Of a stretch of DNA of 64,000 bases, positions 7,355-47,476 are shown in pieces. Each line of letters begins with the position of its first letter. Within the stretch, counting starts at the first letter, position 1. The notes under the pieces were generated by a model. It saw nothing but the letters and a program-made list of their open reading frames with translations, searched no databases and was not told the DNA's origin. The stretch spans positions 544,001 to 608,000 of the forward strand of contig CAWKMU010000004.1 of assembly GCA_963850905.1 (NCBI GenBank). The letters are read 5' to 3'. The DNA is from an uncultured Gemmatimonadales bacterium (GTDB lineage: Bacteria > Gemmatimonadota > Gemmatimonadetes > Gemmatimonadales > Gemmatimonadaceae). Both the position numbers and the translations under genes were made by a program.

Positions 7355-7864
7355 GTGAGTGAATCGAATCAGGACCACGCCGCGAAGCTGAGCGACCAAC
7401 TCTGCTTCGACCTGTACGCGGCCGCACGGGCGGTCACCCGTGCCTATGGGCCAGCCCTCGCCGCTGTGGGGCTCACCTACCCACAGTACCTGGTCATGAC
7501 CACACTATGGCAGCACGCCCCGCGCACGGTGAAGGAGCTGGGGCAGAGGCTCGATCTCGACTCCGGCACGCTGTCGCCGCTTCTCAAGCGACTCGAGTCG
7601 GCTGGTCTGGTGACCCGCCACCGCCGCCCCGATGACGAGCGCACAGTCGAGATCGCCCCGACGGCCAAAGGACGCGCGCTGGTCCGCGACGCTGCCGGCG
7701 TGCCGAGGGCGATGGCCGGCGCGATGGGGATCTCGGCTCAGGAAGCGAGACGCACCCGCGCCATATTGGGAAAACTGATCGCGTCCCTCGGGCGCACCCC
7801 GGACGACGAAGCGACTCTCGTGGCGGAGGCCGGCGACGCATCCCCGCGCCGTGCGGCCTCGTGA
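7355..7864 (+). CDS. MarR family regulator, OhrR-like (single Cys)
   Basis: LSDQLCFDLYAA, GLTYPQYLV, LDSGTLSPLLKRLE, DER motifs typical of OhrR. Confidence 0.9.
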   Translation: MSESNQDHAAKLSDQLCFDLYAAARAVTRAYGPALAAVGLTYPQYLVMTTLWQHAPRTVKELGQRLDLDSGTLSPLLKRLESAGLVTRHRRPDDERTVEIAPTAKGRALVRDAAGVPRAMAGAMGISAQEARRTRAILGKLIASLGRTPDDEATLVAEAGDASPRRAAS

Positions 7865-8090
7865 TTGGCCACCTCGTCGCCACTGGTTGGCCTGTCCGCT
7901 TTGTTGTCGTGCCGGTGCTCCTCGTCGGGCTCCTCGTGACACGGTGGCTGCTGCGCCGAACGCGATCGCCGGCCGGCTGGCGCGCCCCGTCCGTTTGACG
8001 AGCGTTTGCGCGGCAGACGGCGTGGCAGAGCCGCTCGACCGCGGCCACGACGGTCGCGGCCGCTTACGCCACCGTTCGGCTTAGGCTCTA

Positions 8091-8594
8091 TTATCGGGCC
8101 GCACGTCGCGTGCGGCCATCCTCTGCGCCTTCGGTCGTCTGGTCGGCGCGCCGGGCGAGCGACGTCGTCACTTCTTTCAAAAGGGCGCGGAGCCGCTGGC
8201 CCGCGTCCGCCGTCAGACCCATGGCGGACGCCATCTTGGTCGGCACGCCTGCCGCCTCGCGCAGGAGCGCGGTTCCCTTCAATGTCAGGGCGACCTCGAC
8301 CGCGCGCTCATCCTCCTGGCGCCGGCCGCGGGTGACCAGGCCGGATGCGTCCAGTCGCTTGAGGAGCGGCGACAGGGTGCCCGAATCGAGCTCTAGTCGG
8401 TCGCCAAGCTCGGTGACAGTGCGCGGCGCGCGCTGGCGCAGCGCCACCATGACCAGGTACTGCGGGTAGGTCAGCCCCAGCGACGACAGGAGCGGCCGAT
8501 AGGCGCGTGTAACGGCCCGCCCCGTAGCACAGAGATCGAAACACAGGCTCTCGCTCAGGTCGGCTGCCTCTACTATGTGCTTCAGATTTACCAC
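8091..8594 (-). CDS. MarR family regulator, OhrR-like paralog
   Basis: LSESLCFDLCATG, GLTYPQYLV, LDSGTLSPLLKRL. GTG 8594 is preceded by GAGAGG. Confidence 0.88.
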   Translation of the reverse strand: MVNLKHIVEAADLSESLCFDLCATGRAVTRAYRPLLSSLGLTYPQYLVMVALRQRAPRTVTELGDRLELDSGTLSPLLKRLDASGLVTRGRRQEDERAVEVALTLKGTALLREAAGVPTKMASAMGLTADAGQRLRALLKEVTTSLARRADQTTEGAEDGRTRRAAR

Positions 8595-45324: not shown

Positions 45325-45537
45325 GGAGTCACCGGTCTTTCGTCGAGGGGCATCTGGCGACGAGCCATTGCGGCTCGCGCAAGGATACGGATTGCCGAGA
45401 CCGCCCATGACGCGGCGCCAGCGGCTCGGCCTCGGTGGTCAGCTCGTGAGGATCATCGCTAGGAAGTCGCTCACGAGAAGACTAGTTCCCGCCCAAGCTC
45501 CGTGTCTCCTTTGTCCTTTCTCCATCGCTCCTCTCTA

Positions 45538-45563
45538 ATTTTGGCCGCCGTGCGGCCACAAAT
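45538..45563. repeat. Palindromic element copy A
   Basis: ATTTTGGCCGC-CGT-GCGGCCACAAAT just downstream of the ppa stop. Confidence 0.6.
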
Positions 45564-45565
45564 CC

Positions 45566-46114
45566 CTACTTCGCGTCAGTCAGCCGTTCTCGCATCGTCC
45601 GGTAACGTTGAAGCGCACCATCAATAATGGGGAATGCTTTCTCCGCCGGTTGAATCGCATCCACCTCGACCGCCTTCCCTTCGAGTTGCTTGTAATCTTG
45701 AAAGAAGCGGCGCAGCATGAGCAGGCGATGCGGCGGCATGTCCGCGGCCTCACGATACCCATCAAATTCGGGATCAGCCGTGGCGACCGCAATGATTTTG
45801 TGGTCCATCTTCCCGGTATCGATCATGGCCATGAGGCCAATCGTGCGCGCCTTCACCAGCGTGAGGGGCACGACACTCTCCTGGCAGAGAACCAGCACAT
45901 CGAGCGGATCATCGTCTTCTGCCAACGTCTGCGGAATGAACCCGTAGTTGGCGGGATAATACACGGCCGAATACAAGACACGATCCATCTTGATCAGCCC
46001 GCTCGCCTTGTCCAGCTCGTACTTGACGCTCGAGTGCAAGGGAATTTCGATCACCGCGGTGAACTCTTGCGGCAGGCCGTCCCCCGGGGAGATGTCGTGC
46101 CAGGCGTGCGCCAC
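45566..46114 (-). CDS. ppa: Inorganic pyrophosphatase (family I)
   Basis: KYELDK, YPANYGFIPQT, DDDPLDVL, FFQDYKQLE. GTG 46114 with GGAGG. Confidence 0.95.
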   Translation of the reverse strand: MAHAWHDISPGDGLPQEFTAVIEIPLHSSVKYELDKASGLIKMDRVLYSAVYYPANYGFIPQTLAEDDDPLDVLVLCQESVVPLTLVKARTIGLMAMIDTGKMDHKIIAVATADPEFDGYREAADMPPHRLLMLRRFFQDYKQLEGKAVEVDAIQPAEKAFPIIDGALQRYRTMRERLTDAK

Positions 46115-46253
46115 CTGAACCTCCGGTTTTGGCAATCATTAACTTTATAAAGGTGAGGTCAGCCGCGCGCGCGCCTTTGCGCGTTATTCTGATTCGCCAT
46201 CTCTCGACGTAGCGCTCGTTCGCGCAGTTTGGCCAACAGAGGGGAGCAAACTC

Positions 46254-46865
46254 ATGGATCGCGTCCTCGACCTGTGGTCTGACGTCGTTTGACCCTTTTG
46301 CTACCTCGGCTCGGTCTGGGCCGAAGCAGCTGCACGAGAACTCCAAGCGACGCTACGCGTGCTTCCGTTCGAGTTGCACCCGGAGACGCCGCCCCAAGGA
46401 GCACCGAAGCCAATTCCACCCGCGGCCTGGCCGCAGGTCCGCCGGCGTCTTGAGGGACTGGCGCGTGAGGTCGGTCTCCCGATCGATCCACCGGATCGGA
46501 ACGTCAACTCCCGCTTTGCGCTCGAGACCGCGGAGCTCGTGCGCGCCAAGCGCGGCGACGGCGCCGCCGGCGCCTTTCATCACGACGTCTCGCGCGCCTT
46601 CTTCACGCAGCGCGCCGACATCGCGAAACGCAATGTCATCATTCCCATCGCCGAAGGCCATGGCGTCTCCGCGTCGGACGTCGACGACGCGTGGCGGGAA
46701 CGCCGGTTTCGCCAGGGTGTCGACGCGTTCGTTGAGCAAGCGCGCATGGCCGGCGTCACCGGTGTGCCGGCGATGGCCTGGCCGAATCAGCGCGCCATCC
46801 TCGGCATGATGCGCCCCGAAGACCTCGTCGTACGCCTAGGCGACCAACCAGCCTTGGACCGGTAG
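46254..46865 (+). CDS. DsbA/FrnE family oxidoreductase, probable selenoprotein (U13-P-F-C16)
   Basis: RBS, ATG 46254, MDRVLDLWSDVV-TGA-PFCYLG continuing in frame into PFELHPETP...GVTGVPA. Confidence 0.85.
46293..46328 (+). promoter_or_regulatory. Bacterial SECIS-like hairpin
   Basis: Stem TCGGCTC (46306-46312) / GGGCCGA (46318-46324), loop GGTCT starting 20 nt after the UGA; lower pairing TGCT/AGCA. Confidence 0.75.
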
Positions 46866-46876
46866 GGGCGAACCAT

Positions 46877-47476
46877 TCAGAAGGCCCGCGGATCGAGCAC
46901 GCTGCCAGTTTGCTTCCCTTCCACACTTGCCACGTAGGCCCGAGCTACATCAGCGGCAGGTTGCCCGGCACTTGGATCCTGCCCGCGAGCGCGCAGTGTC
47001 TCGGATACCGACGTCGGGCTGACGACATTGATGCGTTGCCCCCGCGGCAACTCGAGCGCTGCCGAGCGCGCGAATCCCTCGAGCCCCGCGTTGACCAGAC
47101 TGACGGCGGCCGCGCTTCGCGCTCCCTCCCGAGCCAATGAGCCCGCCGTGATGGTGAACGAGCCGCCGTCGGTGACCGAGGCAATGCCCAACCGCACGAG
47201 GTTCACCTGTCCCATCAGCTTGCTGTTCAGGCTGAGGGAAAAATCGGCATCGGTGAGTTCAGCCAGCGGCTTGAACGCTACCAGTCCGGCGGCGCAGACC
47301 ATGGCGTCGACGCGCCCGACCCGAGCGTACAACGCACGGATCGATGCGGGGTCGCTGATGTTCACCTGCTCAGCCGTGTCGCGATTGCTCGCGAGGACGA
47401 GGTCGTGCCGGCCCGCGAGAGCCGCAACAATCGCTCGACCAATGGTGCCGCTCGCACCAACGATGAGTATGCGCAT
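46877..47476 (-). CDS. Short-chain dehydrogenase (atypical SDR)
   Basis: VGASGTIG, SKLMGQVNLV, RINVVSP. Confidence 0.9.
   Translation of the reverse strand: MRILIVGASGTIGRAIVAALAGRHDLVLASNRDTAEQVNISDPASIRALYARVGRVDAMVCAAGLVAFKPLAELTDADFSLSLNSKLMGQVNLVRLGIASVTDGGSFTITAGSLAREGARSAAAVSLVNAGLEGFARSAALELPRGQRINVVSPTSVSETLRARGQDPSAGQPAADVARAYVASVEGKQTGSVLDPRAF

Follow-up and report, generated by a model that had tools for sequence, protein, structure and literature searches.

A selenocysteine codon candidate in a FrnE/DsbA-like gene

In the window, a 64,000-nucleotide stretch of DNA from an uncultured Gemmatimonadales bacterium (contig CAWKMU010000004.1 of assembly GCA_963850905.1), a forward-strand reading frame opened by an ATG at 46254-46256 and closed by a TAG at 46863-46865 carries an in-frame TGA as its thirteenth codon, at 46290-46292. 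When this TGA is read as selenocysteine (Sec, U), the frame encodes a protein of 203 residues that runs MDRVLDLWSDVV-U-PFCYLGSVW across the codon and onward to the TAG. A product of 168 residues, starting at the GTG at 46359, is what both the mechanical list of open reading frames (ORFs) and the public protein record (P0002) contain. An earlier note on this DNA had remarked that the ORF list starts the gene at 46359 and thereby leaves out the active site, had proposed the upstream ATG with the same-frame TGA and the 203-residue product, and had expected annotation pipelines to truncate the gene; translation and the public record bear out each of these points. Our reading, to which we assign a probability of roughly 0.9, is that 46254-46865 is one intact gene for a FrnE/DsbA-like enzyme, the UGA of which is decoded as Sec.

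The read-through product matches the DSBA-like thioredoxin domain (PF01323) over residues 5-194, covering profile positions 2-189 of 191 (E = 6.5e-25; 88.5 bits, with a cut-off of 25.6); no NCBIfam model matches the 203-residue protein. The best sequence match in the PDB is FrnE (entry 5cnw; E = 1.5e-7, residues 5-195, identity approximately 22%), with the CPWC of FrnE aligned onto the U-P-F-C of the window protein. Eight full-length cysteine-containing homologues (53-79% identity; alignment A1) read WSD..CPFCYLGS where the window gene reads WSDVV-TGA-PFCYLGS. The cysteine of these eight proteins and of FrnE is thus found opposite residue 13, in agreement with the proposal that the TGA takes the place of the first Cys codon of the CxxC motif. 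Apart from U13 and C16, the protein contains no Sec or Cys.

An AlphaFold2 model, built on 34 sequences, was obtained with high confidence (predicted local distance difference test, pLDDT, 92; predicted template-modelling score, pTM, 0.89). It consists of a strand at residues 3-9, a helix at 14-29, a strand at 32-38 and a helical insert at 56-165, followed by the closing strands and a helix; residue 13 sits one residue ahead of the start of helix 1. In a Foldseek search with this model, five FrnE entries occupied ranks 1-5 with query TM-scores (TMq) of 0.82-0.84 (5cnw: TMq 0.83, E = 1.3e-11). They were followed by SCO1869, proteins resembling 2-hydroxychromene-2-carboxylate (HCCA) isomerase, kappa-class glutathione S-transferases and DsbM, while the periplasmic DsbAs scored far below FrnE (TMq 0.53-0.62). 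Since strand 1 begins at residue 3 and the active site lies at residue 13, there is no room for a signal peptide, and the model, in which no N-terminal extension precedes the fold, suggests that the protein is likely to be cytoplasmic.

The features of the locus are collected in Table 1. Pro172 would correspond to the cis-proline that lies opposite the active site in folds of the DsbA type. A scan of 46050-47000 revealed no sigma-70-like promoter.

Table 1. Features of the predicted selenoprotein gene, in window coordinates.
Feature	Position	Strand	Basis and remarks
Shine-Dalgarno-like AGGGGAG	46240..46246	+	Sequence reading; 7-nt spacer to ATG 46254; presumed function
Complete coding sequence, 203-residue FrnE/DsbA-like predicted selenoprotein, TGA at codon 13	46254..46865	+	Translation, PF01323, FrnE match, model
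TGA, predicted Sec codon (U13), position 1 of the U-P-F-C redox motif	46290..46292	+	Homologue alignment; TGA in 83 of 87 loci
TGC, Cys16, second (resolving) residue of UxxC, sole Cys of the protein	46299..46301	+	Translation; invariant in alignment A3
SECIS-like hairpin within the ORF: 7-bp stem 46306-46312/46318-46324, loop GGUCU 46313-46317	46306..46324	+	Fold, consensus stem (49 sequences), bSECIS constraints, synonymous-site fixation
Possible outer 3-bp helix around the hairpin, GCU 46300-46302/AGC 46328-46330	46300..46330	+	RNAalifold consensus (A2 columns 14-16/42-44); weak, one-sided changes only
GTG, start of the truncated 168-residue product	46359..46361	+	ORF list and public gene call
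CCG, Pro172 of the G-V-P motif	46767..46769	+	Invariant in alignments A1 and A3; aligned to G-V-P of FrnE
SECIS, selenocysteine insertion sequence; bSECIS, bacterial SECIS.

Conservation of the TGA and of the downstream hairpin

The state of codon 13 was compared in 87 related loci, comprising the 7 closest from species-representative genomes (51-73% identity) and the best 80 metagenome loci (64-78%). TGA was found in 83 of the 87 and TGT in two; the remaining two are unreadable at this position (L171, in which the N-terminus is replaced, and L190, the contig of which begins past the codon). All seven loci from species-representative genomes carry TGA; by record name, the carriers are two Ca. 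Cybelea, one Ca. Elarobacter, two Eremiobacterota bins and two Rhodospirillales-labelled bins. The 80 metagenome loci comprise 76 with TGA, both TGT forms and both unreadable cases. A motif search of these 80 had returned 65 TGA and 2 TGT forms and had missed 13 loci, 11 of which proved to be TGA on inspection. Apart from the TGA, the aligned sequences show no stop. Matches of 59-79% identity, each with exactly one TGA, were also held by 16 of 41 sampled relatives of the Ca. Cybelea genome G429; in this count, which includes G429 itself (already present among the 87 as L035), a TGA anywhere within the match was counted, and one match is a 53-residue fragment at a contig end.

In a tree constructed from codons 26-195 of 70 unique rows (L188 was left out for its frameshift), TGA is the widespread state, and the two TGT forms appear as two separate changes inside TGA clades. 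The nearest Cys forms are the protein P0003, with 79% identity in A1 (82% by BLASTP), and L114, the nearest row of the tree. Contigs of two public soil runs (X2 record 5 and X3 record 7) span position 46290 unchanged, with TGA; these runs may include the source sample, and their independent support for the TGA is hence weak. The earlier note had suggested looking for TGC or TGT in reads and for relatives that all carry Cys with no conserved hairpin. Neither was encountered: the run contigs covering the codon show TGA, and both the TGA and the hairpin are conserved among the relatives.

A few odd variants were observed among the related contigs. Cys16, invariant in A3, is replaced in L177 by a TGG codon (U-P-F-W); in L176 the 9-nt TGACCGTTT is duplicated, giving two TGAs; and the reading frame is shifted close to the motif in L173 and L188. 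Errors of assembly or decay of the copies could account for these variants.

Selection and synonymous entropy were computed on 71 unique coding sequences. The ratio of non-synonymous to synonymous change (dN/dS) was 0.159 for codons 2-35, as compared to 0.211 for codons 36-195. In codons 14-35, variation at third positions was 3.40 times that at positions 1 and 2, a ratio equal to that in the undisputed part of the gene. The purifying selection on both sides of the TGA indicates that both sides are translated, and as codons 2-35 are the portion that gene callers omit, the coding-type constraint upon them argues against the truncated call. Synonymous sites are also constrained in this region: normalised synonymous entropy falls to 0.30 in codons 1-12 and to 0.40 in codons 14-25, the remainder of the gene having a value of 0.55, and the eight 12-codon intervals with the lowest values begin at codons 3-12. 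Gly19 is encoded by GGC in 71 of 71 unique sequences, while other four-fold sites use three or four codons. This constraint around the TGA and the hairpin lends independent support to a putative function at the RNA level.

The hairpin that follows the TGA consists of the stem TCGGCTC/GGGCCGA, which includes one G-U pair, and the loop GGTCT. It is the minimum-energy fold, with -10.4 kcal/mol when folded alone. The 7-bp stem and the loop starting with GG are as the earlier note had described them; the distance of 20 nt from the TGA, which the note had given for the stem, is that of the loop, the stem beginning 13 nt past the TGA. The bacterial SECIS (bSECIS) model, as outlined in PMC13188914, has a loop of 3-9 nt and a stem of 4-16 bp (Figure 2 legend of that source), a G in the first two loop positions, mostly in the form N1-G-(G/U)-N-N2 with N1 and N2 paired, a spacing of 16-37 nt between UGA and loop, and a free energy of -7.5 kcal/mol or lower. 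With a loop of 5 nt, a stem of 7 bp, a spacing of 20 nt and -10.4 kcal/mol, the window hairpin lies within all four constraints, and the description of it as a SECIS-type element agrees with the published model. Its loop GGUCU fits the consensus with a G-U pair between N1 and N2, and the AGUUU loop of relatives fits it with an A-U pair.

The consensus stem was recovered by RNAalifold across 49 sequences (alignment A2). Two forms of the loop were seen, TCG-GTC (GGUCU) in 27 unique rows and TCA-GTT (AGUUU) in 41 TGA rows and in the TGT locus L121. The two synonymous changes that separate these forms always occur together, the frameshifted L188 being the sole mixed case, and the switch from one loop to the other is a coupled two-base change by which the closing pair is kept. 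The tree requires four changes of loop type in all; L114, as a single loop of the other type, accounts for one.

Selenocysteine machinery and the weighing of alternatives

The assembly (4.49 Mb in 6 contigs, 82% complete, 1.5% contamination) contains a tRNA-Sec gene (69.1 bits, anticodon tca), selA (541.8 bits), selB (332.6 bits) and selD (374.9 bits). The ability to decode Sec, which the earlier note had implied for this organism, is thus matched by the presence of selC (tRNA-Sec), selA, selB and selD together. The tRNA-Sec gene follows approximately 100 nt after the end of selD (G000:C3:3126708-3127829), which has a TGA of its own in frame, in CAG-TGA-ASK (L020 1531), at what we take to be the position of the catalytic Cys/Sec of SelD. 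SelD itself would therefore be a predicted selenoprotein, and Sec decoding is predicted for no fewer than two genes of the assembly. Past the TGA of selD, the minimum-energy fold contains no hairpin comparable to that of the window; a possible GGGUC/GACCU stem was noticed there by eye.

Searches for selA gave matches in all 9 further genus genomes that were covered (that in G005 being weak and broken by 2 TGA; E = 1.1e-33), in 7 of 7 genomes carrying TGA orthologues (in two as fragments at contig ends) and in 51 of 61 relatives, a total in which G000 and the unpublished G016 are included. Within the window, TGA terminates four of the six Pfam-supported neighbour genes, and none of the six has an internal stop. 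As TGA is an ordinary stop in these neighbours, the code is standard and the recoding is local; a genome-wide reassignment of TGA was considered and, on the same ground, rejected.

We propose that SelB in complex with Sec-tRNA(Sec) would bind to the hairpin, the loop of which begins 20 nt after the UGA, and that insertion of the Sec so delivered would compete with the action of release factor 2 at this codon. Residue Sec13 would then serve as the attacking nucleophile of the U-P-F-C centre and would cycle with Cys16 through a selenenylsulfide. From its likeness to the FrnE of D. radiodurans, the enzyme is likely to reduce or shuffle disulfides, its presumed substrates, in the cytoplasm, as part of the defence against oxidative or thiol stress.

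Several observations weigh against the decoding of this UGA as Sec. In DNA of 64% G+C the hairpin alone is unremarkable (z = -1.12; 28 of 200 shuffles fold as well), and the evidence that exceeds chance is the conservation of the TGA, not the fold energy of the hairpin. None of the nine consensus pairs changes on both sides; with no compensatory covariation, the argument for the structure is drawn only from conservation and from the constraint on synonymous sites. The stem also encodes the conserved L-G-S-V-W-A-E, so that its conservation is partly at the protein level. Two Cys-form loci are available as DNA, of which L114 keeps the stem and L121 the whole hairpin, so that these two loci give no sign of a hairpin specific to TGA forms. 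When 46150-46450 was compared to Rfam at a permissive setting (E up to 10), no family was hit, a result that neither supports nor opposes the proposed element. All of the Sec machinery lies on contig C3 of the binned assembly and the gene on contig C4; this concern is mitigated by the window's porin and inorganic pyrophosphatase (ppa) genes, which match a same-genus genome at 89% and 94% DNA identity, and by the selA matches in all 9 of the other genus genomes searched. Because selA is common in the lineage, its co-occurrence with the gene discriminates little. A search of 9 other genomes of the genus revealed no orthologue, its one weak match having 35% identity. Finally, no RNA run is listed as holding the 46254-46865 stretch, and the assignment of Sec is a prediction.

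One alternative is that the TGA is a true stop, with a leader of 12 codons terminating at 46292 and with the 168-residue protein from the GTG as the functional product. The ORF list and the public gene calls do give this product, and TGA is a normal stop in the neighbouring genes. According to the model, however, such a protein would have lost most of strand 2 and everything before it, strand 1 and the active-site helix included, and with these the whole redox centre; moreover, codons 14-35 vary in the manner of coding sequence, codons 2-35 show the low dN/dS given above, and the N-terminus of the read-through product is the one found in full-length Cys homologues. We regard a true stop as highly improbable. 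The notion of a pseudogene, or of a TGC or TGT turned into TGA by faulty sequencing or assembly, draws on the failure to find orthologues in the other genomes searched of the genus, on the existence of the close Cys forms P0003 and L114, and on the frameshifts or duplications in the related contigs L173, L176 and L188. It is difficult to reconcile with the presence of TGA at this codon in 83 of 87 independent loci that have no other stop in the alignment, with purifying selection on both of its sides, with the contigs of two runs that confirm it, and with a tree in which TGA is widespread and TGT arises by two separate changes; such an origin appears extremely improbable.

An additional scenario is read-through of the UGA with a different amino acid, Cys or Trp, supplied by a near-cognate or mischarged tRNA. 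Insertion of Sec is predicted here from sequence alone, the stem is without covariation and Cys forms of the protein are viable, all of which would be compatible with this scenario. Nevertheless, we consider it very unlikely, given that the assembly holds a complete and specific Sec system, that the hairpin fits the bSECIS model with the right spacing and is surrounded by constrained synonymous sites, that TGA serves as a stop elsewhere in the window, and that the position in question is occupied by the catalytic Cys in a family for which UxxC selenoproteins are already on record. Decoding as Sec is thus the reading that we retain.

Relation to known families, genomic context and significance

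A DsbA-like selenoprotein with a UxxC motif, belonging to COG2761, was reported in 2005 from the Sargasso Sea metagenome on the basis of nine sequences with predicted SECIS elements (Zhang, Fomenko and Gladyshev, PMC1088965), and the listing of selenoprotein families in a 2026 review includes a "DsbA-like protein form 1" with PF01323 and UxxC (PMC13188914). The earlier note's remark that DsbA-like proteins are a known selenoprotein family is in line with these descriptions. The window protein has in common with form 1, as described there, the PF01323 domain, the UxxC motif with Sec in first place and a small, G-leading apical stem-loop directly past the UGA, and both were predicted by the logic of Cys/Sec pairs. 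The two differ, when compared by description, in that the window clade comes from soil sequences and the family was first obtained from marine ones; the nearest named records of the window clade are Ca. Cybelea, Ca. Elarobacter and Eremiobacterota bins. Membership in COG2761 would follow from FrnE being the best PDB match. Taken together, the sequence comparisons support the view that the window gene is a new, mis-annotated member of DsbA-like form 1; as the family was described in 2005, the gene adds a member to a known family and mainly corrects a truncated call. A full-text search of the open literature found no paper pairing words beginning with Eremiobacter with selenoprotein or selenocysteine.

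The FrnE of D. radiodurans (DR_0659; PDB 5cnw, 5co3 and 5cp1) is described in PMC8945050 as a disulfide reductase/isomerase that works in the cytoplasm and belongs to the FrnE subfamily of DsbA. According to the same description, the family motif is CP(W/F)C, and the active site is regenerated by a C-terminal CxxxxC, which is absent from the FrnE of S. roseofulvus and D. maricopensis. The window protein likewise has a near-N-terminal xP(W/F)C, no signal peptide and an aligned G-V-P. It differs in having a predicted Sec for the first Cys, in its length of 203 residues, approximately 57 below the 260 of the crystallised chain, and in being without the C-terminal CxxxxC, a motif that is not strictly defining for the subfamily. 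With the periplasmic DsbA of E. coli and other Proteobacteria it has in common the thioredoxin fold with a helical insert and a CxxC-type centre, but it carries no export signal and its fold matches to these proteins are weaker. By analogy, the window enzyme is likely to be a cytoplasmic reductase or isomerase and not a periplasmic oxidase.

The window hairpin, like the elements of the bSECIS model, lies within the ORF just past the UGA, and binding by SelB is predicted; a second loop form, AGUUU, is carried by the window gene's relatives. The best-studied bacterial SECIS is that of E. coli fdhF, the loop of which likewise reads GGUC; a bulged U of the fdhF kind is not evident in the window hairpin.

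The gene stands alone in its neighbourhood. Upstream of it are genes for a porin (plus strand), a YceI protein (minus) and an inorganic pyrophosphatase (minus), and downstream, all on the minus strand, genes for a short-chain dehydrogenase/reductase (SDR), an alpha/beta hydrolase and a protein of the metallo-beta-lactamase fold. When the six neighbour proteins were compared by tblastn to the 87 loci, weak SDR matches were obtained in 3 loci only; among 18 flanking ORFs of 9 loci there were 11 Pfam matches, with no thiol-redox family and no family in more than one locus. In neither of these searches was a DsbB-like or other conserved partner gene seen beside the orthologues.

The pyrophosphatase copy at 45566-46135 (minus strand) is 94% identical in DNA to that of the congener G004 and has only 49% protein identity to its best match in the congeners G003 and G009, a pattern that suggests a neighbourhood variable as a whole across the genus. 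Because this ppa copy itself varies among congeners, its identity across genomes is no guide to the placement of the window's organism. A segment of approximately 75 nt (45489-45564), located directly beyond the 3' end of the pyrophosphatase gene, ends in a GGCCGC...GCGGCC hairpin. It matches at least 12 places in G004 and several in G009, with 81-90% identity; it is a short dispersed repeat and not a tRNA.

A DNA search found no orthologue of the FrnE/DsbA-like gene in five of the genus genomes, and none came to light in a sample of 400 genomes from the phylum of the window, in which the strongest matches had identities of 36% (a homologue with one in-frame TGA in a genome of the same class, G395:C8:119446-119994, minus strand) and 31%. 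A distant DsbA-like homologue of the same order (L029; G040:C183, ~7830-8222, minus strand; 31% identity) reads WAEYY-TGA-PWCY, with its UxxC at the same position as that of the window gene. No selA was detected at E up to 1e-30 in the 95%-complete bin that holds this homologue (G040), and either the gene is decaying or the bin is incomplete. Judged by these searches, the window gene is accessory and patchy in the genus, and its horizontal transfer seems plausible. The orthologues L037 and L038, from the Rhodospirillales-labelled bins, carry TGA, have 52-53% identity and are grouped by the tree with Ca. Elarobacter and Eremiobacterota bins; this placement reflects either horizontal transfer or mislabelled bins.

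Among the 120 best public protein records for the clade only 8 are full length, and all 8 are Cys forms. The window's own public record is without the active site, and the others among the best 120 cover 53-86% of the protein, seven aligned ones having their starts at residue 39 at the earliest. A read-through call would thus correct a systematic annotation error. It would also add a soil clade to a selenoprotein family first known from a marine metagenome, and would supply approximately 70 natural variants of one SECIS-like element; general knowledge of selenoproteins or of DsbA/FrnE enzymes is left unchanged.

A more speculative and rather doubtful proposal is that the gene belongs to a clade of FrnE-type selenoproteins, widespread in soil and with Sec as the ancestral state, which passes from one Sec-competent lineage to another as a self-contained unit, the SECIS being contained in the ORF. 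It is suggested by the presence of the gene in the window genome vs. nine searched congeners in which it was not found, by its occurrence in 16 of 41 sampled relatives of a Ca. Cybelea genome and by the two Rhodospirillales-labelled bins. If this proposal is true, the clade, through the coupled switching of its loop between GGUCU and AGUUU, would constitute a natural experiment on the recognition of SECIS elements by SelB and on the survival of transferred selenoprotein genes.

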